Shown here: in pieces, positions 13,615 to 63,650 of the stretch
How positions within the stretch are numbered: position 1 is the first letter of the stretch
How the letters are laid out: the number at the start of each line of letters is the position of its first letter
Assembly: GCA_041550235.1 (NCBI GenBank)
Contig: JBFEPE010000002.1
Location: 909-64,908 of the forward strand
Origin: Minisyncoccia bacterium
GTDB taxonomy: Bacteria; Patescibacteriota; Minisyncoccia; UBA6257; JAAZHW01
Reading direction: 5' to 3'
Length of the DNA stretch: 64,000 nucleotides
Program-made: the position numbers and the translations under genes
The notes under the pieces: model-generated
What the model was told of the DNA's origin: nothing
Database searches by the model: none
Seen by the model: only the letters and a program-made list of their open reading frames with translations

Positions 13615-13900
13615 ATAGATTAAAGCATTCCCCCGTCCGCCAGAGGCGGATGTGCCACCTTCGGCGGGGGGCACCCCGCCTTCGCCAAGGCTTCGGCAGG
13701 GCAATGCCCGTCCAGCCAGAGGCTGGCCACCCCTCTATTAGAGGGCAGTATGTCCGCCTATGGCGGGGAATAAGATTTATATCTTAGGTGGTAGTGGATA
13801 TGAGGTTTGATTGTATATAAAACTATGAGTATATTGTTATAAATTAAAGACCCTCCCCCCGCCGAAGGCGGGGGGAGGGTCAAGAGGCTTAATATAACAA
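13615..13900. repeat. composite BIME-like block of GC hairpin modules between rplD and rplW
   Basis: Contains GTCCGCCAGAGGCGGATGTGCCACC, CACCCCGCCTTCGCCAAGGCTTCGGCAGGGCAATGCCCG, CCACCCCTCTATTAGAGGGCAGTATGTCCGCCTATGGCGGGGAATAAG, and CCCTCCCCCCGCCGAAGGCGGGGGGAGGG. Confidence 0.7.
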
Positions 13901-20766: not shown

Positions 20767-20985
20767 TTTTTATTCTCCTTATTTTAAATTTTTTACAACA
20801 GGCGGCAAAACATCTAATATCAATTTGGCATATATAAATCTATTTGTCAATAGATTGATTTTTTTTGTTTTATAATGGGAAGGTAATGAAGAAGAGGGGG
20901 AAATCCCGCCTTTGGCGGGGAAAACACCCCGTCTCGCATGAGGCGAGCCACCCCTCTATAAGAGGGGAATTATAATACAATTAAT

Positions 20986-30614: not shown

Positions 30615-30800
30615 AGGGCAAGGAGAAACACCCCGTCTGTTTTCGGCGGGACGTAATAAATTATTTCATAATTTAAACGTCCCAGCCACGTTGAAATTGC
30701 GAGGCAATTTTTTACGTGGCGAGGCGAAACCCGCCTTCGTCAACCCGCCTTCGCTAAAGCTACGGCAGGGCAAGGGACTTCGGCGAGGCGAAGAAAAATA
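30615..30800. repeat. composite GC-hairpin repeat block
   Basis: ACACCCCGTCTG, CCACGTTGAAATTGCGAGGCAATTTTTTACGTGGCGAGGCGAAACCCGCCTTCG, CTACGGCAGGGCAAGGGACTTCGGCGAGGCGAAG. Confidence 0.7.
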
Positions 30801-35247: not shown

Positions 35248-35454
35248 ATGAATAAAGATGTGCAAAAAATTAAAAAGAGTGTTTGTAAAGTTAGTTGTTG
35301 TCGGGGCGGTTGTTTTAAATCAAGTCATCATATTTCACCTATCAAAAAAGAAGATTTGAAGGAGAAGGCAAAAAGGGCTACATTAAAAGTACTCAAGGAG
35401 TATAAAGGGGTATTTCATAGGCTTGCTGAATATGATAGAGGATTGCCAAAATAA
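35248..35454 (+). CDS. small Cys-rich protein (68 aa), putative cognate antitoxin of the downstream Doc-family toxin
   Basis: Overlaps the Doc ORF by 32 nt. CKVSCCRGGC cluster. Not Phd-like. Confidence 0.4.
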   Translation: MNKDVQKIKKSVCKVSCCRGGCFKSSHHISPIKKEDLKEKAKRATLKVLKEYKGVFHRLAEYDRGLPK

Positions 35455-35899
35455 TATTAATAAGATTAATATTAAGATTATGGAGATTATGTGTCATCCA
35501 ATGGCGATGGATTTTTTTAATTCAAAAACAGATCCAATTTCCTGTTTTTCAAGACATGATAGGAATAAGTTAGAAGCAATTCTTAATAATCCATATCAAA
35601 CATTTAACCAGAAAGAATTATACCCAACATTTAATAAAAAAGTGGCAATACTTTATTATGGATTAATAAAGGGGCATTGTTTTGAGAATGGAAATAAAAG
35701 AATAGCCACTGCTACTCTTTTAGTATTTTTGTTAATAAATGATATTTTTATTACGGGAGATTATCAAGAAATAGAAGACTATTTAGTTGATTTAGCATTG
35801 AGATTGGCATCATCAGAAGGCAACGATAAAATGGATGATTTTCTTTTGGAAATTGAGAAATGGCTTGATGGTAATACAATAAAAACATTAAACTATTAA
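35423..35899 (+). CDS. doc: Fic/Doc-family protein, Doc (death-on-curing) toxin type
   Basis: HCFENGNKRIA matches the Doc signature Hx-F-x-(D/N)-G-N-K-R. Confidence 0.7.
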   Translation: MLNMIEDCQNNINKINIKIMEIMCHPMAMDFFNSKTDPISCFSRHDRNKLEAILNNPYQTFNQKELYPTFNKKVAILYYGLIKGHCFENGNKRIATATLLVFLLINDIFITGDYQEIEDYLVDLALRLASSEGNDKMDDFLLEIEKWLDGNTIKTLNY

Positions 35900-38278
35900 A
35901 TTCTTGATTCGCATTACTTTTTTGATGAAGTCGCCAAAGACATCTATGTTTGGCTTTATTTTTTTTAATTGATAATTTTCCAATTCCGCTCCAATTGATA
36001 AATTATTTTCTGACTTATATCTCTTAATCTCATCTATTAAATCCAAAACAATATCAAATTCTACCAAATCCTTTTTCTGACTATTTTCTAAAGATACCTC
36101 ATCAGGCCAATTAGAAATATGAATACTTTTTTGTCCGTCAATATCCCTAAAACCAGATTGATAAATTTCTTCCGTGATAAATGGCATTATCGGAGCAAAT
36201 AATTTTAAGATAGCTAAAAATACCTTATACAAAGTCCATTGAGCCGCAATTTTTGATTCAATATCATCGCCATAAAGCCGATATTTTACAAACTCTAAAT
36301 ATCTATCAGTAAATTTTGACCAAAAGAAATCATCAATATAATTTCTCGCTTTTGCAAATTCGTATTTCTCAAACTCTGTTGTCGCCAATCTAATAGTAGA
36401 ATTAAGTTCATCAATTATCCAATTATCAGAATAATCCAAAGAAGCATCTTTGAATGATTTTTTCTTGCTCAAATCAAAGTCCTCAATTTGCATTGATAAA
36501 AATTTAAAAGCATTCCAAAGTTTTGTAGTTGTTTTTTTACCTTTTTGAATCTCATCTAAACTAAATCTTAAATTTTGACCCAATCCAGCCCCAGTCGCCC
36601 AATAGCGGAATGAATCAGCTCCGTACTCACTTATCACTTCCTCAGGAGGGGTATAATTTTTTAATCTCTTTGATAATTTTTTACCATCTTGTCCCAAGCC
36701 CCATCCGGAAATCATTAAATTTTCAAATGGAATATCATTGAATTGATAGAAACTCTTTACAATAGAATAAAAATCCCATGTCCTTATTATTTCAAAGGCA
36801 TTTGGACGAACAATCGGAGGGTATAATCTTTCTTTGTCTTTTTCTGATTTCACCAATTCTCTTATTAAGAATTGAGTGCATGATGATGTTGCCCATGTAT
36901 CCATCACATCTTCTTCTGGTTTAATATTTTTACTCCCGCATTTTGGACATTTATTAACGGGTGGCTTGTCCTTTATGGGATTAACGGGCAAATCTTTTTC
37001 GTCAGCAAAAATTGGCTCGGAGCATTCCTCACAATACCATATAGGCAATGGCACTCCATAATATCTCTGTCTTGAAATACACCAATCCCACTTCAAAGAA
37101 TTGACCCACAATTCAAGTATTTTAAATTTGTCTTCGGGATGCCATTTTATTTTTTTACCCATTTCCAACCACTTTTCTTTCAATTCAGGGGTAGATATTT
37201 TAATAAACCACTGCTTGCTATTTACAAATTCAACGGGGGTAGAGCATCTTTCATGGACATTAAGAGAATGAGTGATATCTTCTTGTTTTTCAAGAAGGCC
37301 ATCATTTTTTAAATCATCAATTATCTTTTCTCTCGCATCTCTTAAATCTAATCCTTGATATTTTCCAGCTAATTCTCCTAATTTTCCATTTTCTAAAATA
37401 AGTGGTCTCGTATCCAAATTATCTAATTGCCATTTTTCTAAATCTTCTTTGTCTCCCCATGTGCAAACCATCATAATTCCTGTGCCAAAATTAACATCTA
37501 CTTTTTCGCTTGATTTAATTGGGATAGAATAATCAAATAATGGAACTTTTGCCATTTTGTCAATTAAATCAATATATCTCTTGTCGGTTGGATTAACATA
37601 AAGGGCGACACAAGCCGGCAATAATTCGGGTCTTGTGGTGGCAATAGTTAAGCTTGAGCCATCTTCTTCGCCCTTAAAATTTATATAATTAATTTTTGAT
37701 TCTTCTTCTTTGTCTTCTAAGTCGGCTTGAGCAAGGGCGGTTTGACAAGAAGGACACCAGAGGACAGGGGCCTCTTTTTGATATAATGCCTTTTTTTTAT
37801 ATAAATCTATAAGTGATCCTTGGGAAACTTTTGTTGCGAGTGGCGAGATAGTGCTATATGTCCTGCTCCAATCTACTGACACCCCTAAACTAGACCAAAG
37901 TTTTTTGTATGTTTGAGAACTTATTTCTGTTTCTTTTAGGCAAAGTTCAATAAATTCTTTTTTGCTTATTTTTGATTTATCAATATTATATTTTTTTTCA
38001 ACAAATCTTTCGGTGGGCAAACCATTATCATCAAATCCCATAGGATAAAAAACATTAAAGCCCCGCATTCTTTTATATCTCACAATAAATTCGGCTTGGG
38101 CATAAGACATTATGTGCCCGTGGTGGAGGTGGTCGGCTGATGCATAAGGTGGGGGAGTGTCAACAGAAAAAATTTGCCTTTCAGAATTTTCCTCAAAAGC
38201 AAAAATTTTTTCATCTTCCCAATATTTCCTCCACCTCTCCTCACTCTCTTTGAAGTTGTATTTCTTTGATATATCCAT
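35888..38278 (-). CDS. valS: valyl-tRNA synthetase (compact form)
   Basis: HIGH-region PPPYASADHLHHGHIMSYAQAEFIVRYKRMRGFNV, ATTRPELLPACVALYVNPTDKRY, CPSCQ zinc motif, WDWCISRQRYYG, and KLSKR (KMSKS-like). Confidence 0.75.
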   Translation of the reverse strand: MDISKKYNFKESEERWRKYWEDEKIFAFEENSERQIFSVDTPPPYASADHLHHGHIMSYAQAEFIVRYKRMRGFNVFYPMGFDDNGLPTERFVEKKYNIDKSKISKKEFIELCLKETEISSQTYKKLWSSLGVSVDWSRTYSTISPLATKVSQGSLIDLYKKKALYQKEAPVLWCPSCQTALAQADLEDKEEESKINYINFKGEEDGSSLTIATTRPELLPACVALYVNPTDKRYIDLIDKMAKVPLFDYSIPIKSSEKVDVNFGTGIMMVCTWGDKEDLEKWQLDNLDTRPLILENGKLGELAGKYQGLDLRDAREKIIDDLKNDGLLEKQEDITHSLNVHERCSTPVEFVNSKQWFIKISTPELKEKWLEMGKKIKWHPEDKFKILELWVNSLKWDWCISRQRYYGVPLPIWYCEECSEPIFADEKDLPVNPIKDKPPVNKCPKCGSKNIKPEEDVMDTWATSSCTQFLIRELVKSEKDKERLYPPIVRPNAFEIIRTWDFYSIVKSFYQFNDIPFENLMISGWGLGQDGKKLSKRLKNYTPPEEVISEYGADSFRYWATGAGLGQNLRFSLDEIQKGKKTTTKLWNAFKFLSMQIEDFDLSKKKSFKDASLDYSDNWIIDELNSTIRLATTEFEKYEFAKARNYIDDFFWSKFTDRYLEFVKYRLYGDDIESKIAAQWTLYKVFLAILKLFAPIMPFITEEIYQSGFRDIDGQKSIHISNWPDEVSLENSQKKDLVEFDIVLDLIDEIKRYKSENNLSIGAELENYQLKKIKPNIDVFGDFIKKVMRIKNLIV

Positions 38279-38378
38279 ATTTTGATTATATATTAAATTT
38301 CTTAAATCTCAAATTATTGTATTCGCTCGACTACACATATATTAGACCTTTTTGACTTATTTGTGGTAAAATATAAAT

Positions 38379-38846
38379 ATGAAAGTTGGTGATATTATTA
38401 AAAATAAAAAAATTATTATTATTTCGGCAATTATAATTGCCTTGATTATAATTACTCTTATTATTATCAATATATATTTTGGAACTGGAAAGGAAAATAA
38501 TATTCCTCCTGAAAAAACAATTGAGCAATTAACGATGGAGGCGAGGGAATTTTGTTCTCAAAATGGTGGGGAAGTGCAGGGAAGATTTGATAATGAGAGT
38601 AATCAGTATGAGGTTTGTTTTTTTGAGGGCAATAAAGAGTGTGATATTTTTGAAATGAAAAATGGAGATTGTCCGATTGGTGGAAGGCAAATGGTTTTTT
38701 CAGGCCCAAGAGATTATTGTGTTTCAGTAGGCGGAGAATATTTACCAAAGGAAGATGCCTTAATTGAGGATTTATTCATCACAGGAGATTGCATCTTAGA
38801 TAATGGAGAAGTATTGAATGCATTGGGATTATTTAGAAGTAGATAG
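38379..38846 (+). CDS. hypothetical secreted Cys-rich protein
   Basis: 155 aa with an N-terminal TM/signal and 6 Cys in the mature part. Confidence 0.45.
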   Translation: MKVGDIIKNKKIIIISAIIIALIIITLIIINIYFGTGKENNIPPEKTIEQLTMEAREFCSQNGGEVQGRFDNESNQYEVCFFEGNKECDIFEMKNGDCPIGGRQMVFSGPRDYCVSVGGEYLPKEDALIEDLFITGDCILDNGEVLNALGLFRSR

Positions 38847-38926
38847 TTTTTTAAATCATTGCATTGCCCCGCTCCGCCAGAGGCGGATGTGCCACTTTTG
38901 GCGGACAGGAATAACAATAAATAATT

Positions 38927-39457
38927 ATGAGCATCAAGAGAAAAATAATAATCGCAATTTATTATATAATTATTTTATTTGCCTCTATCTTATTATGGGG
39001 TAGGATTGAATACTCACTTTTTCCTAATAACATCAATGATATATTTTTTTCTATCCTATATGCCATTTCTTTTTCCTTGATGGGATTTTCTATTGTTATT
39101 TTTTTCTACAAAAGATTTGATTGGGCGAAAAGAAATGTTGAGCAATATCAAAATGATTTTAAAAATTTTAAATTATTAAATCATTTGGCAATAATAATAT
39201 TGCCAATTATAGAAGAGATTTTCTTTAGAGGGCTTATTCTTTCTTATTTTGGTTTTTGGATTTCAGTGGTTTTGTTTGGATTGCCTCATGCTATTTTTTT
39301 CAGAAAAGAAGCGGTTTCTACATTCATAACGGTATTCTTATGGGGGATAATTTTCAATACCCTTCTTCTAATCACATCATCATTATTAGCCCCAATAATT
39401 TGTCATATTTTAATAGTTTATTATAGGATTATATTCGTTAAGACTTCGACGGAATGA
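38927..39457 (+). CDS. CPBP-family intramembrane metalloprotease (CAAX protease/Abi-like)
   Basis: IIEEIFFRGLIL (EExxxR) and FGLPHAIFF motifs. Confidence 0.7.
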   Translation: MSIKRKIIIAIYYIIILFASILLWGRIEYSLFPNNINDIFFSILYAISFSLMGFSIVIFFYKRFDWAKRNVEQYQNDFKNFKLLNHLAIIILPIIEEIFFRGLILSYFGFWISVVLFGLPHAIFFRKEAVSTFITVFLWGIIFNTLLLITSSLLAPIICHILIVYYRIIFVKTSTE

Positions 39458-39630
39458 AATAAATTATAAATAATTTAAACATCCCAGCCATGTTGAAATT
39501 GCGAAGCAATTTTTTACATGGCGGGCGAAGTAAAAATATGAGTGAAAATATAGAATCATATAAATACACCGTTTTTTTGGCAGGCAGAGATTTTTTGCTC
39601 CAATGATTTAAATATGATAAAATTATTTAT

Positions 39631-41019
39631 ATGGCTAAAAATAATCCAAAAATTCATTTCTTTGGAGGAGCAAGGAAGGTAGATGGCTCTAACTATATGT
39701 TAGAAGTTGGAAAAGATAAAATATTAATTGATGTCGGACTTCATCAATCAGGCGACTCAAGAGAATTAAATTTAAAAAAATTTCCATTTAATCCAAAAGA
39801 AATTAAGGTAATTATAATCACTCATGCTCACATAGACCATGTTGGTTTGTTGCCACGATTATACAAGGAGGGATTTAGAGGAAAAATATATAGCACTCCT
39901 CCAACAAAAAGTTTTGCCGAAATAATGCTGGAGGACTCCCAAAGAATTTTAGAAAAAGAGGAAAAAATTGCTCCATATTCAATAGAAGATATTCAGAAAA
40001 CATTAGATTTATGGGAGACGATGGAATATCATATCAATAAGGAAATATCTCCTAATATTTCATTTGTTTTTTATAATGCCGGTCATATTTTAGGCTCGGT
40101 CATCACTTTAGTTACTGCCAAGCCATCGCCTCAAGAAGAGACAAAAATTGTATTTTCGGGCGATCTAGGGAATTCATATAATATGCTTTTTCCTGAGCCG
40201 GAGAAATTATCCGAAGGAGATTATTGTTTAATAGAATCAACTTATGGCGACCGGCTTCATGAGGATTTAGGAAGCAAGAAGGATATATTGGAAGATATTA
40301 TTGAGGAAACTGCGAGGAACAATGGTGTCTTGATGATTCCTGCCTTTGCAATGGAAAGAACTCAGGAATTACTTTTTGAATTGAATGAATTAATTCAAAA
40401 AGAAAAAATACCTCAACTGCCAATATTTGTAGATAGCCCGCTTGCGACAAAGATAACAAATGTTCATAGAAAATATCAATCATATTTCAGATTAGAAGCA
40501 TTTAAAGTAGTAGATAGAGACCCAGATGGATTCTTTAATTTCCCTGGATTAAAATTTACCCTTTCTACTGATGAATCAAAATCTATAAATGATATCCCTG
40601 CTCCTAAAATTATTGTGGCAGGGTCTGGTTCATCTCAAGGAGGGAGAATTATTCATCATGAGAAAAGATATTTGCCTGACCCGAACAGCACATTACTTGT
40701 AGTTGGATATCAGATGAAGGGTAGTTTGGGAAGGCGATTAATTGAGGGAGAAAAAAAGGTGAGAATTCATGGAGAGGATGTTTTGGTGAGGGCAAAAATA
40801 GAAATGATAAGTGCTTATAGCGCTCATGCTGATCAAAAGCAACTTTTAAATTGGCTAAAGCCAATGAGATTTTCTTTGAAGAAATTATTTGTCGTTCAAG
40901 GTGATGAGGAATCAAGTATGGCCTTCGCGGAAAAATCAAGGAATTCGTTTGGAATTGATGCAGTCATCCCCGTCCATGGTCAGGTGATAGAGCTAGAGAC
41001 AAGACGAATTGAGAAATAG
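39631..41019 (+). CDS. MBL-fold beta-CASP ribonuclease (RNase J/CPSF-like)
   Basis: ITHAHIDHVGLLPRL (HxHxDH), YSTPPTKSF, and C-terminal beta-CASP His (SAHADQ). Confidence 0.7.
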   Translation: MAKNNPKIHFFGGARKVDGSNYMLEVGKDKILIDVGLHQSGDSRELNLKKFPFNPKEIKVIIITHAHIDHVGLLPRLYKEGFRGKIYSTPPTKSFAEIMLEDSQRILEKEEKIAPYSIEDIQKTLDLWETMEYHINKEISPNISFVFYNAGHILGSVITLVTAKPSPQEETKIVFSGDLGNSYNMLFPEPEKLSEGDYCLIESTYGDRLHEDLGSKKDILEDIIEETARNNGVLMIPAFAMERTQELLFELNELIQKEKIPQLPIFVDSPLATKITNVHRKYQSYFRLEAFKVVDRDPDGFFNFPGLKFTLSTDESKSINDIPAPKIIVAGSGSSQGGRIIHHEKRYLPDPNSTLLVVGYQMKGSLGRRLIEGEKKVRIHGEDVLVRAKIEMISAYSAHADQKQLLNWLKPMRFSLKKLFVVQGDEESSMAFAEKSRNSFGIDAVIPVHGQVIELETRRIEK

Positions 41020-41033
41020 TAAGGTGCAATACT

Positions 41034-41762
41034 ATGATATCAAAAAAAATAAGGATTATTTTTGAAAATGAGAATTTCTTAATAATTGATAAGTCAAGTG
41101 GCTTATTAGTTCATTCTATATCAAGCAAGGCAAGGGGTAATGAAAAAACATTAGTTGATTGGTTAATAAATAAATATCCTAATATAAAAGATGTTGGCGA
41201 AAATATTATTCGCCCGGGAATAGTTCATAGATTAGATAGAAACACATCAGGAATTATGATAATTGCTAAAAATAATGAAGCATTTTTTTATTTCAAAAAA
41301 CTTTTTCAAGAAAGAAAGATAAGGAAAAAATATTTAACATTGGTTTGGGGGTTATTAAAGGAAAAAGGGGGGATTATAGATAAGCCAATTGGCAGGATAA
41401 GGGCGGCCACCAAAAGATCAGTTTTAGCTAAAAATATTAGCAATATCAAAGAAGCCATCACGGAATATAAATTGATTAAGGTTTTCAAAGATAAAGAGGG
41501 CAGAGAGTTTTCTCTATTAGAGGTGAGTCCGAAAACAGGGAGAACAAATCAGATAAGGGTTCATCTTCAATATTTAGGTCATCCAATAGTTGGCGATGAT
41601 ATTTATAGCCCTAAAAAATTGGTCGCTCCAAGCGGATTAGATAGAATGTTTCTTCACGCTTTTTCTTTAGAATTTAATTCAATAAGTGGAGAAAGATTTT
41701 TATTTGAAGCAAATCTTCCCCAAGAATTAGAAATTTTTTTATCAGATTTAGAGAAGCAATAG
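41034..41762 (+). CDS. RluA-family pseudouridine synthase
   Basis: Catalytic motif HRLDRNTSGIMIIAKN. Confidence 0.8.
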   Translation: MISKKIRIIFENENFLIIDKSSGLLVHSISSKARGNEKTLVDWLINKYPNIKDVGENIIRPGIVHRLDRNTSGIMIIAKNNEAFFYFKKLFQERKIRKKYLTLVWGLLKEKGGIIDKPIGRIRAATKRSVLAKNISNIKEAITEYKLIKVFKDKEGREFSLLEVSPKTGRTNQIRVHLQYLGHPIVGDDIYSPKKLVAPSGLDRMFLHAFSLEFNSISGERFLFEANLPQELEIFLSDLEKQ

Positions 41763-41913
41763 ATAATATTTTCCATTGATTTTAAATTAAAATAATTTAA
41801 GATGTATAAATAATAATAAACTGAGGCATCCTCCCTCGCCCGTCAAAGGCGGATGTGCCACCTACGGCGAGGGGGGATGTGAAACTTTATAATTTAGCAA
41901 AATAAAAATAATA

Positions 41914-43230
41914 ATGAATAAAATAAATAAAATATCAAAAGCGAGGATGGTGTGGTGGTTAATATTGATAATCATCGTCTCTTTAGTGGCGGGAGCATTT
42001 AGTTACGGCGAAAAAATAACTTTTATTCCCGAATGGATGAAGAAGCCATTTAGATTAGGGTTGGACTTATCGGGCGGAGCCCACTTGCTTTACGAAGTGG
42101 ATATGAGCCAAGTTGATGAGAAAGACAGAGGCGATGTCGCATCAGGACTTAGAGATGTGATTGAAAGAAGAGTAAATCTTTTTGGAGTAGCGGAACCAAG
42201 AGTAGAGAGTGTGAGGGTCAAAGAGGATTATCGTCTCAATGTGGAATTAGCCGGAGTGAAGGATATATCTTTAGCAGTAGCAATGATAGGGGAGACGCCA
42301 TATTTAGAATTTAGAGAGCAAAGAACAGAAGACGAGACAGCAATGATATTAGAGGAGCAAGAAAAAGAAGGAGGAGAGCAATATTTAGGGATTGACCCAT
42401 ATTTTGTTCCATCAACCCCATCACTCACAGGAAAATATTTGAAGTCGGCTCAATTAGATTTTGACCAAACAACATTTGAGCCAATAGTTAATTTGCAATT
42501 CACTGATGAGGGAGGAGATATTTTTGCTGAATTAACAAGGGAAAATAAGGGCAAGATGTTGGCTATTTATTTAGACGGATATCCAATATCAACCCCAGTC
42601 GTGAGAGATGAGATATTGGATGGAAGTGCCCAAATATCAGGAAGATTTACTTCTCAAGAAGCAAAAGAATTAGTGCGAAGGCTTAATGCTGGAGCATTGC
42701 CAGCACCAATTAATCTCATATCTCAGCAAACAGTTGGAGCAAGTTTAGGTCAAGAATCATTAGGGCTTATCGTTAAGGCGGGGGTTATTGGAATATTAGC
42801 AGTAGGGGTATTTATGATTCTTTATTATCAATTATTTGGTCTCTTCGCCGCTATTGCTCTTGCAATTTACACGGCTTTGTCTTTGGCAATATTTAAATTT
42901 ATTCCGGTCACTCTCACATTGTCAGGAGTAGCGGGCTTTATTTTGTCTATCGGAATGGCGGTTGATGCTAATATTTTAATATTTGAAAGAACAAAGGAAG
43001 AGTTGAAAAAGGGGTTAAGTAAGATGAGGGCGATAGAGGAAGGTTTTCAGAGGGCATGGCTTTCTATAAGAGATTCTAATATTTCTACAATAATTACTTG
43101 TTTGGTTTTGTATAATTTTACGACATCTATCATAAAGGGGTTTGCCCTCACTCTTCTTATTGGAGTCCTTATCAGCATGTTTACCGCCATCACCGTCACC
43201 CGAACATTTCTAAGAGTCTTTCATAAGTAA
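41914..43230 (+). CDS. secD: protein translocase subunit SecD
   Basis: LGLDLSGGAHLLYEVD, plus the C-terminal six-TM bundle. Confidence 0.85.
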   Translation: MNKINKISKARMVWWLILIIIVSLVAGAFSYGEKITFIPEWMKKPFRLGLDLSGGAHLLYEVDMSQVDEKDRGDVASGLRDVIERRVNLFGVAEPRVESVRVKEDYRLNVELAGVKDISLAVAMIGETPYLEFREQRTEDETAMILEEQEKEGGEQYLGIDPYFVPSTPSLTGKYLKSAQLDFDQTTFEPIVNLQFTDEGGDIFAELTRENKGKMLAIYLDGYPISTPVVRDEILDGSAQISGRFTSQEAKELVRRLNAGALPAPINLISQQTVGASLGQESLGLIVKAGVIGILAVGVFMILYYQLFGLFAAIALAIYTALSLAIFKFIPVTLTLSGVAGFILSIGMAVDANILIFERTKEELKKGLSKMRAIEEGFQRAWLSIRDSNISTIITCLVLYNFTTSIIKGFALTLLIGVLISMFTAITVTRTFLRVFHK

Positions 43231-43299
43231 TAATAAAATTTTTTTATCATCTTGTTTGTTGTCCTTGTATCTCTCTCTGTCGTCCCCGTATTTTCCCTC

Positions 43300-43390
43300 C
43301 TTGTCACCCCCGCGAAGGCGGGGGTCTAAAAAGATGGCAAGTGGGTGGTGGTAGCGAGGCAGAGATTCCTGCCTTCGCAGGAATGACAAG
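43300..43390. repeat. about 91-bp MITE-like element with CTTGTCA/TGACAAG termini and two internal hairpins (CACCCCCGCGAAGGCGGGGGTCTAAAAA; CTGCCTTCGCAGG)
   Basis: Related copies at 57933-58008 and 63527-63623. Confidence 0.5.
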
Positions 43391-43416
43391 TTTAATTTTG
43401 TTGATTAATTAATAAT

Positions 43417-43950
43417 ATGAGTGATGATGTCTTTAATAGATTAGAAAAAGATTTGTATATTAAATTATTGGATTATGGATTTAAAAATCCACAGGGGTTT
43501 AATTTTAAAACAATTAAGGAGTATTTGAAATTGAATGAATATGATGAGAGGATATTGGAGATAAATATTGAGAATGCATTTATTAACACTAGAAATCGCG
43601 ATGTTGATAGTAAGGCCGCTGTTCAAGAGACAATCTTTCTATGCCTTGCTGATAGGCAGGGTCGTCATTTTGATGAGGGAAAAAAATATGTCCTCACTCT
43701 TGAGGCGAGGGGAAAATATATTGATTATTTAGAACTAACAGAGGCGAGAAAATTTTCACAAAAAGCATCGCTGGATGCAAAAAGGGCAATAAATATTGCA
43801 AAATGGGCATTGATAGTTTCAATTATTATCGCATTCATTTCAATTATATTTTCACTTATTCAAATATTAAGACCTATAAAAATAGACAAAAGCCAATTTA
43901 ATCAAGTTATAGAATATTTAGATAATGGAATGGAGAATGCCACAAAATAA
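43417..43950 (+). CDS. hypothetical protein with C-terminal TM anchor (177 aa)
   Basis: First gene of the secD-secF intervening cluster. Confidence 0.45.
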   Translation: MSDDVFNRLEKDLYIKLLDYGFKNPQGFNFKTIKEYLKLNEYDERILEINIENAFINTRNRDVDSKAAVQETIFLCLADRQGRHFDEGKKYVLTLEARGKYIDYLELTEARKFSQKASLDAKRAINIAKWALIVSIIIAFISIIFSLIQILRPIKIDKSQFNQVIEYLDNGMENATK

Positions 43951-44011
43951 GGGGTAGATAAATCTTTCCGCATCAACCCCCTTGACTTATTTTAAATATA
44001 TGTTATAATCC

Positions 44012-44197
44012 TTGTGGGAGGTTAAAATGAGTGATTTTAATAAAATAAATAATATGCCGGAAAAAACCGTGAGCCAGTTAGAAAAAAAGATAGTGGTCAT
44101 TAAAGAATTGATTGGAAGATTGTCTGGGATTAAAAAAATTGAAACTCAGGCAATGCTGAAAACTTTTTATGTAAAATTAGAGAATTTAAAAAAATAA
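44012..44197 (+). CDS. hypothetical 61-aa protein
   Basis: ORF followed by a terminator. Confidence 0.35.
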   Translation: MWEVKMSDFNKINNMPEKTVSQLEKKIVVIKELIGRLSGIKKIETQAMLKTFYVKLENLKK

Positions 44198-44229
44198 TAG
44201 GCTTGATAATTTATTATCTTGTCTATAAA

Positions 44230-44261
44230 AAACAAGGCTAAATGTTTGGCCTTGTTTTTTA
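44230..44261 (+). terminator. rho-independent terminator ACAAGGC..GCCTTGT + T6
   Basis: AAAAACAAGGCTAAATGTTTGGCCTTGTTTTTT. Confidence 0.7.
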
Positions 44262-44313
44262 ATTATTAATTTTTTCTTTGTGTTTTTTATTTATATAGAT
44301 ATAATAGTAATAT

Positions 44314-44700
44314 ATGAAAGTTAAATTAAATTTTTTACATATCTGCGATGAGGTAATTGCCTCTATTGATGGAAAAATAAGCATTATAGGAATGTTTTCC
44401 GTTATTAATACCTTAAAGGTCCCAGCAAACCACCCAAAATTTTATATAATGGTTAATATGACTGCTGATCCGGGCAAATATGATCAATTAATAGAAATAG
44501 TGTCGCCAAGTGGCAGGGTTGTTTCTAAAATAGAAGGAAAATCGGTAATAATTAAAGAGGGTGGGGTAAGTAATTTTATTGCAAACTTCGTAAATACTCC
44601 ATTGCCCGAATTAGGCAGGTATAAGATTAGGGTCTCTGTTGAGGGGGAAATTTTAAGCGATGATGAGGGCTATTTCTTTGATGTTATAAAAAAAGCATAA
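44314..44700 (+). CDS. hypothetical 128-aa protein
   Basis: Coding-like composition. Unknown family. Confidence 0.45.
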   Translation: MKVKLNFLHICDEVIASIDGKISIIGMFSVINTLKVPANHPKFYIMVNMTADPGKYDQLIEIVSPSGRVVSKIEGKSVIIKEGGVSNFIANFVNTPLPELGRYKIRVSVEGEILSDDEGYFFDVIKKA

Positions 44701-44707
44701 TAATTAT

Positions 44708-45100
44708 ATGAACTATACTTTCTTACAAAAAAGACCATTGTTTTTATATGATAAAGTTTCAAATTCTAGTCAATCACTAGATGAGGTTGTTTTTTCTGAA
44801 AATTATCTTGAAAATTCAAGGGGTTTATTAATTTTTAATTTGAGTTCTGATAAGATATATTTAAAAAATGCCCCGCTATTTATTGACAGAGATGTAGATG
44901 AAGATGGGAATATTATTTATTCAAATTCAGATTTAGAAATATTTGGTTATGGCGATACCGACGAGGAGGCAAGAGCGGATTTTGAAAAAGTATTAGAGGA
45001 TTTATATATTTGTTTTAATCAAGAAAAAGAAAAAAATAATCTTCACAATAATGCAATTCCACTTTGGAATCTTTTGGATAATATTTTAAAAGAGAAGTAA
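44708..45100 (+). CDS. HicB/UPF0150-like antitoxin candidate
   Basis: LEIFGYGDTDEEARADFEKVLEDLY resembles the conserved HicB segment (..GxTxEEAxxNxKEAI..LE). Confidence 0.4.
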   Translation: MNYTFLQKRPLFLYDKVSNSSQSLDEVVFSENYLENSRGLLIFNLSSDKIYLKNAPLFIDRDVDEDGNIIYSNSDLEIFGYGDTDEEARADFEKVLEDLYICFNQEKEKNNLHNNAIPLWNLLDNILKEK

Positions 45101-45106
45101 TACATC

Positions 45107-45385
45107 ATGCAATTAAAAATAAAAGAAGCAAAAAGGGTCATTGATAAATTAGAGATGAGGGGGAGAGAGGGGAATGATACTCTCTGTTATTTTTATCACG
45201 AGGGAAAAATGACTAATATATTTACTAGAATCCCCCACAAAAACGGAGATTTAAAAGGCAAGTTGCCCGATTTCATACGACAGCAATTAAAATTAAATGA
45301 AGAAGATTTTCTGAATTTGAAAAAATGTTCATTGAGTAAAGAAGGATACATTGAAATATTAAAAGAAAAAGGGATAATTGATTAA
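45107..45385 (+). CDS. HicA-like toxin candidate
   Basis: CYFYHEGKMTNIFTRIPHKNGDLKGKLPDFIRQQLKL resembles the HicA C-terminus (..H...G...T.P.H..kel..gtl..Ilkq). Confidence 0.4.
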   Translation: MQLKIKEAKRVIDKLEMRGREGNDTLCYFYHEGKMTNIFTRIPHKNGDLKGKLPDFIRQQLKLNEEDFLNLKKCSLSKEGYIEILKEKGIID

Positions 45386-45405
45386 AATAATAATAATAAA
45401 AAAAT

Positions 45406-46299
45406 ATGAATTTTATAAAAATAAGAAAATATCCATATATTTTTTCAGGGTTGCTAATAATAGCAACAATTTTTGGGATGATTTATTTCGGTTTCAATTT
45501 AGGAATAGACTTCAAGGGTGGTTCATTATTAGAAATAAATCTAAACAAAGAAAATATATCATCAAGTGAAGTAGAGGAGATTATGAATAGTTTTGATTTA
45601 GGCGATAGCATAATCTCAAAAACGGAAAGAGGCAGTTTTATTATTAGAACAAAAGATATATCAGAAGAAACTCATCAAGAGATATTAAGCAATTTCAAAA
45701 ATAAATTTGAGAGGGCTGAAGAGGAAAGATTTGAATCAATAGGTCCTGCTATCGGGCAAGAACTCAGGCAAAAATCAATAACGGCGATGATTTTAGTTGT
45801 CGTAGGAATAGCACTTTATTTAGCATGGGCATTCAGAAAAGTATCTCGCCCAATGTCATCTTGGAAATATGGAATTGTAACAATCATTGCCCTCATTCAC
45901 GATGTTCTAATTCCCGCAGGTGTTTTTGTCTATCTTGGATATTTTTCAGGAATGGAAATAGATTCCTCGTTTATTGTTGCCATTCTCGTTGTATTAGGTT
46001 TTTCCGTCCATGATACAATTGTTGTTTTGGATAGGATAAGAGAGAAATTAAGCACTGAGCCAAAATTGGAATTTGGAGAAATAATCAATAAGAGCATCAA
46101 GGAGACATTAGTGAGGTCGTTCAACACATCCATAACATTAATATTTGTTTTAGTTGCCCTTCTTATTTTTGGACCCGCCTCTCTTTGGGGATTCACATTA
46201 GTTCTTCTTATTGGAACATTAGCAGGAACATATTCATCAATTTTCCTCGCCAGCCCACTCCTTTATGACTGGTATTTGAGAAGCAAGGCAAGGCGATAA
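45406..46299 (+). CDS. secF: protein translocase subunit SecF
   Basis: GIDFKGGSLLEINL and the six-TM domain. Confidence 0.85.
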   Translation: MNFIKIRKYPYIFSGLLIIATIFGMIYFGFNLGIDFKGGSLLEINLNKENISSSEVEEIMNSFDLGDSIISKTERGSFIIRTKDISEETHQEILSNFKNKFERAEEERFESIGPAIGQELRQKSITAMILVVVGIALYLAWAFRKVSRPMSSWKYGIVTIIALIHDVLIPAGVFVYLGYFSGMEIDSSFIVAILVVLGFSVHDTIVVLDRIREKLSTEPKLEFGEIINKSIKETLVRSFNTSITLIFVLVALLIFGPASLWGFTLVLLIGTLAGTYSSIFLASPLLYDWYLRSKARR

Positions 46300-46446
46300 G
46301 ATGATAGTTGGAATAATAAGTTTTGAATATAAAATACACTACCCCCCGCCACAGGCGGGGGTATTTTTATAATCATTTTTAAAATAATAAAAAAGAGAGA
46401 GGGCATCCGCTTTTTAGCAGACACCCCCTTTTCGGGATAGAAATCA

Positions 46447-46959
46447 TTAATCAAATAAATTTTTGTTCCAGTCGATAAGATACTGGCTATCGCCAGCAGG
46501 GAACTTGGATAATAAGTTTGTAAAAGAAAAGGTTGGCGTCTCTTGTTCACTAAGAGGATACATTGTCAGTTTTTTCAACCTCTCAATATTTTCTGAATCC
46601 GTTCTTTCTTTCCATTCTTTTATATAATTCCTCCATTCTTGAATAGAACTGATTTTAATGTGGGCAGGTTCAGCATTGAAATTTTCAATAACAAACTCAG
46701 TAAATCTCATCGTTTCTTGATCCCTTGTCTCACAAGTCTTATAAATATAAAATTCATTATCATGAAATATAAGTTCAAGCGGATAAAGATTTAATAATTT
46801 TTCATTGCTTTCCAAACCGCATTTTAATTTTATTAAATCTGGGCTTAGCAAAGAAACAATTATCTTTGTTTTTTTAGATTCAATACAAACAAAGTCTAAC
46901 ACTTTTTCTTTCCCGTCTGCATGGATTTTCCACCCATTATCTTCTCTTTTTATTTTCAT
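46447..46959 (-). CDS. hypothetical 170-aa protein
   Basis: Start moved to MKIKRED, which has the strong RBS AAGGAGGG. Confidence 0.45.
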   Translation of the reverse strand: MKIKREDNGWKIHADGKEKVLDFVCIESKKTKIIVSLLSPDLIKLKCGLESNEKLLNLYPLELIFHDNEFYIYKTCETRDQETMRFTEFVIENFNAEPAHIKISSIQEWRNYIKEWKERTDSENIERLKKLTMYPLSEQETPTFSFTNLLSKFPAGDSQYLIDWNKNLFD

Positions 46960-47125
46960 GATACCCTCCTTTTTTATAGCCATATCTTATTTAGTTTTAA
47001 TCTTGGCCTCTAACATCATATCACAAATAAAAAGTTTGTCAATAGCAGATATTTTTATATTTTTAAGCATATCTTTAGGAAAATAAGATTTTGAAAAACG
47101 GGAAGAAGGTATTATAATACATAAT

Positions 47126-48157
47126 ATGAGATTCTTAGGAGTAGATATTGGAACATCAAATATAAAAGTAGTTGAACTCTCATCATCAAGTGAGGGTCCA
47201 GTATTAGAGAACTATGGGATATTAGAAACCTATAGTTATTTAGAGCGACCAAATGCCGCTATCCAAACAAGCTACTTTAAAATTGTTGAAAAAAATACAG
47301 CAAATCTTTTTAAGGGTTTATTCAAAGAGATGAGGCCAAAGACAGATAATTCCATTATGTCTTTGCCTATTTTCTCAAGCTTTGTAACCGTTTTTGAATT
47401 ACCTCTCATGGATGAAAAAGAAATAGAAAAAGCAATTCCGTTTGAAGCAAAAAAATATATTCCGATGGACTTATCAGGATTAGAAGTTGATTGGGCGATA
47501 ATAGGAAGAAAAGGAAATAATATCAGTCAAATTTTATTAGTTGCTATATCAAAAGAATTAATTTCAAAATATAGCAATATTGCAAAACTGGCTAATTTAG
47601 ATATTGAGGCATATGAATTAGAAAGCGTTGCTTTTACAAGGTCATTATCTCAGGGAGAAAAGGAGCCGATAATCGTTGCTGATATTGGAAGTCAATCAAT
47701 GAATCTAATAACTATTGATAATGGATATTTGGTTGCCAATGAAAATCTCACGACTGCAGGGGCGGAGATTACTCATATTATATCAAGGTCATTGGGGATT
47801 TCTAAAGAAAGAGCGGAGGAATTTAAGAGGATAAAGGGGTTTAATGTTGAGCCACAAGAAAGAGAAGTGGTTAATTTGATGATGCCAATAATTGATTTTT
47901 TTGGAAATGAGATAGGTAGAGCGGCAAAACTTCATAAGAATAAGACAGGCAAGGATGTTAAGAAAATAATTTTGGCAGGTGGGTCGGCTAATCTACCGGG
48001 AATGGATGATTATTTATCAAATTATTTGAGTATGCCTGTTGAGAGGGCATGGCCATTTGCTGGAATTAAGTATGAATCATTTTTGGAGCCATTACTCCGA
48101 GAGGTTGGCCCGTCTCTCGCCTGCGCAGTTGGATTAGCAATGAGAGAATTGAGGTAG
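47126..48157 (+). CDS. pilM: type IV pilus assembly protein PilM (actin-like ATPase)
   Basis: MRFLGVDIGTSNIKVVEL. Confidence 0.8.
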   Translation: MRFLGVDIGTSNIKVVELSSSSEGPVLENYGILETYSYLERPNAAIQTSYFKIVEKNTANLFKGLFKEMRPKTDNSIMSLPIFSSFVTVFELPLMDEKEIEKAIPFEAKKYIPMDLSGLEVDWAIIGRKGNNISQILLVAISKELISKYSNIAKLANLDIEAYELESVAFTRSLSQGEKEPIIVADIGSQSMNLITIDNGYLVANENLTTAGAEITHIISRSLGISKERAEEFKRIKGFNVEPQEREVVNLMMPIIDFFGNEIGRAAKLHKNKTGKDVKKIILAGGSANLPGMDDYLSNYLSMPVERAWPFAGIKYESFLEPLLREVGPSLACAVGLAMRELR

Positions 48158-48208
48158 GCAAATCTTATCCACTTTTTGTTTGAGTGTTTGTATTGTATAA
48201 TTATAAAT

Positions 48209-48757
48209 ATGGCGGAAATGGGATTAATGGGATCACTTGAAAAAGAGAAATTGCCAAGCGGATGGCTCAATAAATTTATCCGATTTAGTGCTATATTATT
48301 AGTGATTGTTTTTATTGCCTATTTCGGATTACATTATGGATATGAAAGAGTTTTAGAAAGAAGAATTGCCGAAGTGGAGGATAATATAATTGGATTAGAA
48401 AAAGAAATCGCCTCTTCAGACAGAGAAGAAGTTTCCGTCTTCTATTCACAATTAATAAATTTGAGGGATTTATTAGAAGGACATATATACTCTTCGCAAG
48501 TTTTTCAAAGATTAGAATTAATTACTCATCCTCAAGTTGCCTTTACAAATTTTGATTATGATTTCAAGGAAGAAAGATTGAAGTTGGACGGATATTCTGC
48601 GAGTTTGTCTGCTATATCAGAGCAGATTTTGGCATTTCAAAGAACGGCTGATTTTAGAGAGATTGATATTTCTGATATTCGTCAAGCAGCTCAAGGTAGA
48701 ATCAATTTTTCAGCGGAGGTATTTTTCAACCCAAGATTAGTTTTGGATAAGATATAG
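48209..48757 (+). CDS. pilN: PilN-like bitopic protein
   Basis: Follows pilM. N-terminal TM with a coiled periplasmic region. Confidence 0.5.
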   Translation: MAEMGLMGSLEKEKLPSGWLNKFIRFSAILLVIVFIAYFGLHYGYERVLERRIAEVEDNIIGLEKEIASSDREEVSVFYSQLINLRDLLEGHIYSSQVFQRLELITHPQVAFTNFDYDFKEERLKLDGYSASLSAISEQILAFQRTADFREIDISDIRQAAQGRINFSAEVFFNPRLVLDKI

Positions 48758-48761
48758 TAAT

Positions 48762-49334
48762 ATGAAATATACGACGAGGAGAAATATAAGCTTATTAATA
48801 TCATTAGCCCTGATGGTTTCGGCATTAGTGGTATTCTTTAGTTTAGATTGGCCTACTATCAGCAATATATCAGAATCAAGTAAAAAATTATCACAAGTGA
48901 AGGCAAAATATGATGAGCAGTTCCAATCAGTTCAAGTCGCAAAATCAATCATCAATCAATACAAGTCATTATCAGGAGTGAGTCAAACAATATCTTTGAG
49001 TGTCCCACGAGGACCCGAAATTCAAAATGTAGTCGCTCAATTAGATAATTTAGCAAGTCAGAGCGGATTAGAGGTTCAAAGCATAAATTTTGACATGCCA
49101 ACTCTTTCTGCATTAGTGGCAGAGAGGGGAGACCAGTTGGCTAAGAAAAATAGGATATTGAACATATCGCTTTCTTTAAATGGTTCGTATGAGTCATTCA
49201 AGACATGGCTATCGTCAGTTGAGAGTAATATTAGATTGATGGATGTAGAAAATATATCTTTTGCTTCTTTGGGTGGAGCAACTGGTGTAGGAAGATTTAA
49301 TTTCAAGGTCTCTCTAAGTGCTTATTATCAATAG
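48762..49334 (+). CDS. pilO: PilO-like protein
   Basis: Synteny and TM + coiled-coil architecture. Confidence 0.45.
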   Translation: MKYTTRRNISLLISLALMVSALVVFFSLDWPTISNISESSKKLSQVKAKYDEQFQSVQVAKSIINQYKSLSGVSQTISLSVPRGPEIQNVVAQLDNLASQSGLEVQSINFDMPTLSALVAERGDQLAKKNRILNISLSLNGSYESFKTWLSSVESNIRLMDVENISFASLGGATGVGRFNFKVSLSAYYQ

Positions 49335-49462
49335 TAATAATTTTTGAAAATATCTCCCCTCGCCTACGGCGAGGGGAATAATCAAACCCGCCCGCCTGAG
49401 GCGGATGTGCCACCTTCGTCAGCCTTTGGCGGACTTCGGCGAGGCAAGGTAATATAAAAAAT

Positions 49463-50929: not shown

Positions 50930-51200
50930 ATAGAGATTAAATAGAAGCAAAAAAACAATACCCCCCCCGCCGCAGGCGGGGGGGGTATTGTCATTCCTGT
51001 CCGCCTGAGGCGGATTATACTCCGGCAGGAATCTAATTCTCCGCCGTAGGCGGACATTCTGCCCTCCATAGAGGGGTGGTTCGTCTCAGGCGGGACGGGC
51101 ATTGCCCTGCCGAAGCCCCTTGCCCTGCCGTAGCCCGCCGTAGGCGGACATTCTGCTTTAGCGAAGGCGGGTTGGCGAAGGCGGGGTGTTTCTCTAAAAT
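50930..51200. repeat. largest composite block of GC-hairpin modules in the window (at least 8 hairpins, several in reverse orientation)
   Basis: CCCCCCCGCCGCAGGCGGGGGGG, CCGCCTGAGGCGG, CCGCCGTAGGCGG, reverse complements of the CCACCCCTCTAT and ACACCCCG modules, CGAAGGCGGG x2. Confidence 0.7.
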
Positions 51201-57744: not shown

Positions 57745-58030
57745 TGAGGCGGGCGGGTTGCTGGAGTATTATTTGCCTCTGGTGGAGAGGAACACCCCGT
57801 CTCGCCAAGAGGCGAGCCACCCCTCTATTAGAGGGGAATAAAACAACTTGAAATTATTATTTAATTATTGTAATATAGGGTTTGTTTGGTAATCTTGCGA
57901 GTAAATTACTTTGAATTATGAAATGCCTCCCTCTTGTCACCCCCGCGAAGGCGGGGGTCTAAAAACCTCGCCAAAACGGAGATGCCCGCTTTCGCGGGCA
58001 TGACAAAGAAGAGACGGGAATGACAAAGAA
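57745..58030. repeat. composite GC-hairpin block including a MITE-like copy (57933-58008)
   Basis: CGACCCGCTTGAGGCGGGCGGGTTG, ACACCCCGTCTCGCCAAGAGGCGAGCCACCCCTCTATTAGAGGGG, CTTGTCACCCCCGCGAAGGCGGGGGTCTAAAAA, GATGCCCGCTTTCGCGGGCATGACAA. Confidence 0.7.
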
Positions 58031-62330: not shown

Positions 62331-62665
62331 TTTTTATTATTTTGTGCTCTTTGATTATCTGTCTGATATTATTTTGATTATTTTATTTTTTGTTTTTTGT
62401 TTCTGTCATCTCTGCTTTTCTTTTGTCATACCTGTCCGTTAGAGGTGGCACATCCGCCTCAGGCGGGCGGATAGTACTTCGGCAGCTTGCCCGCCTATGG
62501 CGGGAATGACAATAAAAATTTATTGAAATAAAAAAATAGGACAGAGGTTGCTTTTTCTCAAAGCAACATGTCCAATAGACCTCTTGCAAAATAGCAATCA
62601 TCTTCCATTCTTTTAGGCAGAAACCTCCCAAATTTCAGAATATTATCTATGAATTAGATAACATT

Positions 62666-63484: not shown

Positions 63485-63650
63485 CGACAAAAAAACACCC
63501 CGTCCCGCATGAGGCGGACATGACACTCTCTTTGTCGCCCCCGCGAAGGCGGGGGTCTAAAAACAAAGCAAAGCGGAGATGCCTGCCTTCGCAGGCATGA
63601 CAATAAAAGTGGGAATGACAAGGGGGGGATAATTTATCTATTTCGTAATT
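63485..63650. repeat. composite GC-hairpin block including a MITE-like copy (63527-63623), immediately upstream of secY
   Basis: ACACCCCGTCCCGCATGAGGCGGACATGACA, CTTTGTCGCCCCCGCGAAGGCGGGGGTCTAAAAA, GATGCCTGCCTTCGCAGGCATGACAA, GGGAATGACAAGG. Confidence 0.7.

Follow-up and report, generated by a model that had tools for sequence, protein, structure and literature searches.

A strain-variable islet with a mobile DUF6941-hicBA-type operon between secD and secF of a Minisyncoccia bacterium

We analysed a stretch of 64,000 nucleotides from a Minisyncoccia bacterium (GenBank assembly GCA_041550235.1, contig JBFEPE010000002.1, positions 909–64,908 of the forward strand; hereafter the window), in which secD and secF are separated by five open reading frames (ORFs). 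We are fairly confident that the intervening DNA is a strain-variable, composite islet of 2,161 bp in an otherwise tight secD-secF junction, and that the right part of this islet is a mobile DUF6941-HicB-HicA operon and a probable hicBA toxin-antitoxin system. The splitting of an essential-gene pair by a small strain-variable islet of the toxin-antitoxin type is a common bacterial pattern, which is found here together with an exact empty site in a Paceibacteria genome of the candidate phyla radiation (CPR). The SecF homologues likewise assign the organism to the Paceibacteria (Patescibacteria/CPR).

The flanking genes were identified by their Pfam domains. The left flank is secD (438 aa, 41914–43230, + strand), which matched SecDF_P1_head (E = 3.8e-30), SecD_1st, and SecD_SecF_C, and the right flank is secF (297 aa, 45406–46299, + strand), which matched SecD_SecF_C (E = 7.9e-54). 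The ORF list for 40500–47500 placed five same-strand ORFs of 177, 61, 128, 130, and 92 aa (ORF1 to ORF5) between them. An initial annotation of this DNA had described secD and secF as split by five ORFs, an element resembling a miniature inverted-repeat transposable element (MITE), and an internal terminator. All of these were found where it had put them, and the terminator was measured at 44226–44261. The nearest relative with sequence context, the Logan contig L003, encodes a SecF and a SecD that are 98% and 99% identical, respectively, to those of the window at the amino acid level, and its secD-secF gap is 19 nt. Alignment of L003 with the window by blastn covered 35311–43232 and 45394–46316 (about 8.8 kb) at 94–96% nucleotide identity. 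At the insertion site, where the alignment breaks, 5 nt of L003 correspond to the 2,161 bp of the window (43233–45393, + strand). The upstream gene order of L003 is the same as that of the window: Fic, a 796-aa aminoacyl-tRNA synthetase, an Rce1-like protein, a beta-CASP protein, and a pseudouridine synthase. The junction between ORF5 and secF was also found in an independent contig of a metagenome-assembled genome, L001 (JBFFCO010000087), and in the Logan contig L002, which contains the entire right side of the islet. The conserved site is therefore empty in L003 and filled in the window, L001, and L002. The earlier proposal that the intervening DNA is accessory agrees with this polymorphism, as a relative with about 96% nucleotide identity carries the two genes 19 nt apart.

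The split of secD and secF could also be read as an assembly artefact, that is, a chimeric join at repeats. GC-rich repeats resembling repetitive extragenic palindromic (REP) elements do break the contigs of relatives here: L002 starts at 43303, inside such a repeat (43300–43390), and L086 and L096, two contigs described below, end in repeats. The junction between ORF5 and secF is nevertheless present in three assemblies, the junction between secD and the islet lies in unique sequence 70 nt ahead of the repeat, and the contig of the window is continuous across both sides. We consider an artefact extremely improbable.

A scan of a genome collection with SecF gave a single locus, and our survey of the secD-secF spacing is therefore based on 80 metagenome loci that were fetched with a SecF profile and in which secD and secF were placed by tblastn. 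The spacing was counted on the 71 loci, all on metagenome contigs of related Patescibacteria, in which both gene ends were visible. The gap was 200 bp or less in 67 of these 71 loci, and overlaps of the two genes were frequent, which bears out the statement of the initial annotation that secD and secF are normally adjacent. The four exceptions each have different content between the genes: a DUF4268 gene in L004 (7037–7996), the housekeeping gene metK in L023 (2204–3403), two ORFs without a family in L037 (5735–6999), and a gap of about 410 bp in L082 (~295–706). The same intervening genes as those of the window, conserved as core genes with housekeeping annotation, were looked for in the relatives and not found. 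Because the outgroups, at 43–74% protein identity, nearly all have secD next to secF, the adjacency of the two genes is ancestral and the islet is accessory. The secD-secF junction takes insertions now and then, in about 4 of 71 lineages.

Both borders of the islet carry an 11-bp direct repeat, TAATAATAAAA. The left copy (43228–43238, + strand) overlaps the stop codon of secD, and the right copy (45391–45401, + strand) lies directly before the ATG of secF. The window contains 6 occurrences of this 11-mer where 0.95 would be expected, and the borders of the islet account for two of them. Because the DNA is of low complexity and the empty site does not show one clean copy, we read these repeats, taken from the junction sequences, as suggestive only, of possible microhomology and not of a proven target duplication. 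The same repeats could mediate a deletion, and the islet might accordingly be ancestral in the species and have been lost from L003. The cassette in the right part of the islet is about 4% diverged from its copies in other strains, and this divergence resembles that of core genes, so the cassette is not a very recent arrival; this also fits an ancestral islet. However, the nearly universal adjacency in the outgroups means that the lineage acquired the islet at some stage, and close relatives carry the same cassette at other loci, which shows active movement. Loss from L003 is in our view unlikely as the origin of the polymorphism. In L001 (310–341), from a close relative, a hairpin of about 28 nt, CCCGCCTTCGTTAAAACTTCGGCGGGCG, has been inserted between the stop codon of ORF5 and the start of secF; this hairpin is not in the window and is a further sign of small-repeat mobility at the secD-secF junction.

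The islet is composite. The left part (43233–44271) consists of a repeat and two orphan genes, and the right part (about 44272–45402) is a cassette of three genes, ORF3, ORF4, and ORF5, with its own upstream region. This 1.13-kb cassette (44272–45402, + strand) has copies of about 96% identity elsewhere. The copy on L086 is 96.4% identical to 44272–45395 of the window; DUF3800, KAP-NTPase, and MazE-like genes stand before it, and REP-like repeats follow it. The copy on L096 (GCA_041548905.1) is 95.8% identical to 44276–45402 and has other DNA on either side: the DNA before it is unrelated, and 41 nt after it a class II aminoacyl-tRNA synthetase gene stands in the place of secF. The right 1.13 kb is demonstrably mobile, and it is the sole part of the islet for which this was shown. 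The L086 copy (within 105–2583) and the empty-site contig L003 derive from one sample. The MazE/AbrB-like protein of L086 has 54 aa, the NTPase belongs to the KAP family of P-loop NTPases, and the neighbourhood is similar to a defence island.

The order DUF6941, ORF4-like gene, ORF5-like gene was also found in two distant high-GC contigs of IMG/VR. The cassette adjoins a tyrosine integrase gene and a tRNA fragment in L091, and it lies near a serine recombinase gene in L092. A pair of ORF4-like and ORF5-like genes without DUF6941 was found in L087, L088/L089, L090, L093, and L094, and the two genes abut or overlap each time; the pair of L094 adjoins an rve_3 fragment. In L087 (203–1174), the pair is preceded not by DUF6941 but by the gene for a ClpP-like serine protease of the SDH type, which is a different possible third partner. 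These neighbours raise the question of whether the islet is what remains, after decay, of a larger integrative element or prophage with the secD-secF junction as its former target, for which the unrelated cargo at the same junction elsewhere (the DUF4268 gene of L004 and the two ORFs of L037) could also be cited. No phage or recombinase genes were found in or near the islet, however, and none of the PHROG matches was better than E = 0.01. In addition, tblastn searches with ORF5 and a central member of its family gave no match in 50,697 phage and 72,556 plasmid records, so that an origin from a plasmid or a known phage is without support, and no repeats resembling attachment (att) sites were found at the islet beyond the AT-rich 11-mer. 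We regard the decayed element as quite unlikely and retain the reading of a small composite islet with a mobile operon.

ORF5 (92 aa, 45107–45385, + strand) is a HicA-type protein. An AlphaFold2 (AF2) model calculated from an alignment of 131 sequences had a predicted local distance difference test (pLDDT) score of 90.5 and superseded an earlier model from 13 sequences (pLDDT 66.7), whose matches to HicA were not significant. The model has an alpha-beta-beta-beta-alpha arrangement (helix 5–14, strands 18–20, 25–31, and 34–42, helix 53–60), followed by two extra helices (65–72 and 78–88). In a Foldseek search of the PDB, the first-ranked match of the model was 1WHZ, the HicA of Thermus (probability 1.00, template modelling score 0.74, root-mean-square deviation 2.5 Å), and ranks 3 and 4 were chains of 6G26, the HicA of Burkholderia (probabilities 0.93 and 0.82). 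ORF5 has 12 close homologues, and an exhaustive profile search with its family gave 820 cluster representatives at E ≤ 1e-3. When 131 members of this extended family were scanned singly, 36 matched PF07927 (HicA_toxin), with a best E value of 1.9e-7. The HicA contexts have been sorted into 14 classes by Gerdes 2024 (mBio 15:e03293-23; PMC10865869), and the HicA of Class 8 is a protein of about 95 aa that has two additional conserved helices at its C-terminus and is encoded after HicB (PMC10865869). We aligned the ORF5 family with the Class 8 sequences of Table S1 of that paper (PMC10865869) using hhalign, and the two matched over their full length (98.9%, E = 3.7e-17). The alignment with the whole E. 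coli HicA gave 87.6% (E = 3.5e-6). These results indicate that ORF5 has the HicA fold, as judged from its predicted structure, and homology to Class 8, with a double-stranded RNA-binding domain and two C-terminal helices.

In regards to ORF4 (130 aa, 44708–45100, + strand), the gene ends 6 nt before ORF5. Such a partner gene accompanies the ORF5 homologue in every context that we examined, often with a 4-nt overlap: an ORF4 homologue of 100–145 aa is directly upstream of the ORF5 homologue in 7 of 7 further contexts (L087, L088/89, L090, L091, L092, L093, and L094). A word-indexed homologue search with ORF4 returned only ORF4 itself, and its family was assembled from the genes adjoining the ORF5 homologues. 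This family aligned with the HicB of Class 8 (hhalign 96.9%, E = 1.8e-10), with residues 32–130 of ORF4 placed on residues 246–341 of HicB, which is the C-terminal HicB-fold domain. The Pfam HicB profiles matched neither ORF4 nor its family. The assignment of ORF4 as HicB-type, matching the last domain of Class 8 HicB, holds on these deeper tests at the level of sequence, and ORF4 and ORF5 are best described, from the same comparisons, as a hicBA module in which the HicA belongs to the Class 8 lineage and the HicB, a putative antitoxin, is minimal. The suggestion of the initial annotation that the last two ORFs resemble a HicB/HicA pair is therefore upheld by the fold model and by the Class 8 alignments of both families, and it is not upheld by the direct searches of Pfam, NCBIfam, and the PDB. 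Class 8 HicA was recently proposed from a few examples, most of them archaeal, and the comparison widens this lineage to about 820 clusters, with the HicB cut to its last domain.

The first gene of the cassette, ORF3 (128 aa, 44314–44700, + strand), encodes a DUF6941 protein (Pfam PF22091, E = 2.1e-20). This was the sole match among the five proteins in scans of Pfam, NCBIfam, PHROGs, and PADLOC, and none of the five was assigned to a housekeeping family, as the initial annotation had stated. A DUF6941 gene is in the same position in L091 (E = 1.4e-18) and L092 (E = 8.9e-17). Its stop codon is 7 nt before ORF4 in the window and 3 nt before the ORF4-like gene in L091 and L092. These arrangements indicate that DUF6941 belongs to the hicBA operon and is not a separate gene, and its repeated occurrence as the first gene of the operon provides a first functional context for this domain. 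The DUF6941 protein is predicted to be all-beta. Searches of the PDB with ORF3, both as a single sequence and as a small family profile, gave nothing relevant, a scan of viral contigs with ORF3 found nothing, and a literature search on DUF6941 found no paper. We considered whether DUF6941 represents an N-terminal part that has split off from Class 8 HicB and rejected this at the sequence level (hhalign 0.2%).

The operon was compared with known systems. The HicB of Class 8 has 331–356 aa in three domains, of which the last has the HicB fold, and a DNA-binding domain (helix-turn-helix, ribbon-helix-helix, or Phd/YefM) is present in the HicB of Classes 3–6 and absent in Classes 1, 2, 7, and 8 (PMC10865869). 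The module of the window is similar to Class 8 in the order hicB then hicA with tight linkage, in the homology of ORF4 to the C-terminal domain of Class 8 HicB, in having no recognisable DNA-binding domain, and in the possession of both extra C-terminal helices by ORF5. It differs from Class 8 in that ORF4 and its relatives (100–145 aa) correspond to the last domain only, in the taxonomic distribution, which is mostly Euryarchaeota for the tabulated members and Patescibacteria and metagenomic elements here, in the DUF6941 gene that precedes the pair and has no relationship to the N-terminal domains of Class 8 HicB, and in an Asp of ORF5 at the position of the invariant His. Class 2 (PMC10865869) also consists of two genes with a small HicB without a DNA-binding domain. 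The present module shares with it a gene order that is the reverse of that of E. coli hicAB. The ORF5 family aligns over the whole length of E. coli HicA, whereas ORF5 differs from it in a helical extension of about 30 aa and in the missing catalytic His; ORF4 is marginally similar to E. coli HicB and has a variable N-terminal region of about 50 aa. The combination of a short HicB, a Class-8-type HicA with Asp, and DUF6941 is a variant outside the published 14 classes.

The third gene of toxin-antitoxin-chaperone (TAC) systems encodes a SecB-like chaperone and is placed after the toxin-antitoxin genes. These tripartite systems, as reportedly described by Bordes et al. in 2016, are said to include HicAB-type members. 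The operon of the window is similar to TAC systems in having three co-transcribed genes around a type II toxin-antitoxin pair; the third gene here is DUF6941, which is predicted to be all-beta and is placed first. As a whole, the islet is comparable to strain-variable islets and defence hotspots: strains of about 96% identity differ in whether they carry it, it is flanked by conserved core genes, other cargo occurs at the same junction in other lineages, and toxin-antitoxin and defence-like genes are among the cargo. It differs from them in being very small, in its position within an operon that encodes two subunits of a single machine, and in having no recombinase, tRNA, clear att sites, or compositional shift.

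Several observations weigh against the preferred reading of the islet as an insertion with a functional toxin-antitoxin operon. With respect to insertion, no clean target-site duplication was found at the borders, where only the AT-rich 11-bp repeat is present, and no recombinase or transposase was found among the five proteins in the Pfam, NCBIfam, PHROGs, and PADLOC scans. The GC content of the islet is 0.303 against a window mean of 0.332 (standard deviation 0.027), which is the 15th percentile and not clearly foreign; the shift in GC or codon usage that the initial annotation had proposed as a check was weak and not informative. ORF1 and ORF2 formed singleton clusters with no homologues in a collection of 15 billion proteins, and ORF1 was found on this contig alone. 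With respect to the toxin-antitoxin pair, ORF4 and ORF5 gave no direct sequence match in Pfam, NCBIfam, PADLOC, or the PDB, even when small family profiles were used, and ORF5 and its 12 close homologues gave no match to PF07927 even at E ≤ 10. The alignment of ORF4 with E. coli HicB was marginal (hhalign 5%), with the expected alignment of the (G)YG-D/E-T-x-x-EA motif. A DNA-binding domain was not detected in ORF4; the sole signal was a weak match to PF12910 (PHD_like) in 2 of 4 members, with a best E value of 0.0015, which is below the cut-off, and an autoregulation by ORF4 is therefore unexplained. DUF6941 is linked to the pair in 3 of about 8 independent lineages. Moreover, Asp24 of ORF5 aligns with the catalytic His, which is H23 of E. 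coli HicA and does not vary among the Class 8 sequences, and Asp occupies this column in all but one of the 12 close homologues. H23 of E. coli HicA is essential for toxicity. Because Asp24 replaces the catalytic His, the RNase activity and toxicity of ORF5 are uncertain.

The last point leads to a different reading of the same operon, in which ORF4 and ORF5 are derived from HicBA and are not a toxin-antitoxin pair: ORF5 would bind RNA or serve as an adaptor without being toxic, in a system centred on DUF6941, for example for phage sensing or defence, with the C-terminal helices as an interaction surface. Besides the Asp of the window protein and its near subfamily, the catalytic column of the 131-member alignment contains 79 His, 41 Asp, and 9 Glu, a split that suggests two or three functional subtypes and raises the question of whether such proteins remain RNases. 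The tight three-gene operon is kept in distant elements, the L086 copy has defence-like neighbours (KAP NTPase, DUF3800, and MazE-like), and HicA domains occur in many defence contexts, as argued by Gerdes 2024 (PMC10865869). On the other hand, the remaining HicA core is conserved in the ORF5 family, including the PHK/SHG motif and the IRxQLKL helix, and the HicB-fold partner is always kept and translationally coupled, as expected of a toxin that needs neutralisation. The Asp or Glu could also be an alternative general base. A non-toxic system is possible but doubtful in our assessment, and we prefer to regard ORF4 and ORF5 as a probable hicBA pair.

Based on the evidence described above, we propose the following mechanism. 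The islet was probably acquired at a secD-secF junction that is otherwise tight, in a Paceibacteria (CPR) chromosome. It encodes no insertion machinery of its own and may have entered by recombination, either at AT-rich microhomology or at the abundant REP-like repeats, or may have been carried in on an integrase-bearing element. The left part carries a copy of the MITE/REP-like repeat of the genome itself together with ORF1 and ORF2, and the right part is a self-contained 1.13-kb operon of tightly spaced genes that moves as a unit between genomic sites and mobile elements. ORF4 and ORF5 are probably a type II hicBA toxin-antitoxin pair, in which ORF5 would be a HicA-type effector with the fold of a double-stranded RNA-binding domain and ORF4 would bind and neutralise it. 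DUF6941 may be a third component that is co-transcribed and co-translated with the pair. The cassette might stabilise itself and the neighbouring DNA, or it might serve in phage defence.

The islet would also affect the transcription of secF. An intrinsic terminator with a 16-bp stem (44226–44261, + strand) closes the ORF2 unit and parts the two halves of the islet. Its predicted folding energy is −19 kcal/mol (z = −6.5), and 0 of 200 shuffled sequences folded equally well. Because the islet has this strong terminator and ends 20 nt before the ATG of secF, counted from the stop codon of ORF5, secF is probably transcribed from islet promoters. Transcription would then start in the promoter region of the cassette or at a site within the 3′ end of ORF5 (45351–45378, + strand), and not together with secD. 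This candidate site, which was recognised by its consensus match only, consists of TTGAAA, a 16-nt spacer, and GATAAT, and matches 10 of 12 positions. With a terminator between secD and secF, the locus offers a natural test of whether, in a minimal genome, a selfish cassette can gain control over how a housekeeping gene is transcribed.

Two further copies were found upstream of co-directional housekeeping genes. In L096 (1307–2611), the cassette is directly upstream of, and co-directional with, the class II aminoacyl-tRNA synthetase gene, and in L088 (1704–2255), the pair is directly upstream of, and co-directional with, a RadA-like gene that encodes a zinc ribbon and a KaiC/RecA ATPase. Together with secF these are three cases, which are a hint and not a pattern. 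A speculative extension, to which we assign a low probability, is that DUF6941, a short HicB, and a Class-8-type HicA, in which Asp or Glu frequently replaces the catalytic His, form an undescribed tripartite mobile module. In such a module, a promoter-bearing cassette of 1.1 kb might tend to land directly upstream of co-directional housekeeping genes (secF, the L096 synthetase gene, and the L088 radA-like gene) and take over their transcription, and the expression of the host gene might in turn help to retain the cassette.

The left part of the islet begins with a MITE-like or REP-like repeat (43300–43390, no strand assigned) with two GC-rich hairpins and imperfect terminal inverted repeats, the arms of which are 28 nt long and 79% complementary. 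Each arm is a GC-rich hairpin in its own right. The repeat has a predicted folding energy of −42.5 kcal/mol (z = −3.6), and 0 occurrences of its motifs are expected by chance. Further copies were found at 57934–58006 and 63532–63603. The repeat is similar to known REP and MITE repeats in its unit of 70–90 nt, its imperfect terminal inverted repeats, its GC-rich hairpins, the presence of several intergenic copies, and the assembly breaks; it differs in that only three copies were seen in 64 kb. GC-rich REP-like hairpins of several types were also observed at 13632–13776, 20920–20972, 30731–30785, 46343–46361, 49380–49440, 51036–51184, 57790–57839, and 62442–62511. REP-like hairpin repeats coincide with the contig ends of L086, L096, and L002, and these hairpins break short-read assemblies, as indicated by this match to the contig ends of relatives.

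The two orphan genes follow the repeat. ORF1 (177 aa, 43417–43950, + strand) has a hydrophobic stretch, WALIVSIIIAFISIIFSLIQIL, near its C-terminus, and we estimated the probability of an ORF of this length by chance in DNA of 30% GC to be about 5e-7. A promoter-like site upstream of ORF2 (43982–44009, + strand), likewise a consensus match only, consists of TTGACT, a 16-nt spacer, and TATAAT with an extended TG, and it was the best site of the promoter scan (11 of 12 positions plus the TG). ORF2 encodes an orphan small protein of 61 aa from a TTG at 44012 or 56 aa from an ATG at 44027 (44027–44197, + strand). Its start is better set at the ATG, because GGAGG is just upstream and an independent gene call in L002 also gave 56 aa. 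No family match was obtained for ORF1 or ORF2 in Pfam, NCBIfam, PHROGs, or PADLOC, and a scan of viral contigs with ORF1 found nothing.

Outside the islet, a 178-aa ORF (46447–46983, − strand) is convergent with secF, and none of the profile libraries contained a match to it. Its conservation in L003 and L002 indicates that it is a core gene, as yet uncharacterised. At the other end of the region shared with L003, a Fic-domain gene (35423–35899) overlaps the end of the convergent gene for the 796-aa aminoacyl-tRNA synthetase, an assignment made by synteny with the Pfam-annotated L003 and L002. Downstream of secF, synteny with L003 and L002 placed a pilM-pilN-pilO cluster, followed by a glyceraldehyde-3-phosphate dehydrogenase gene, at 47126–49334.

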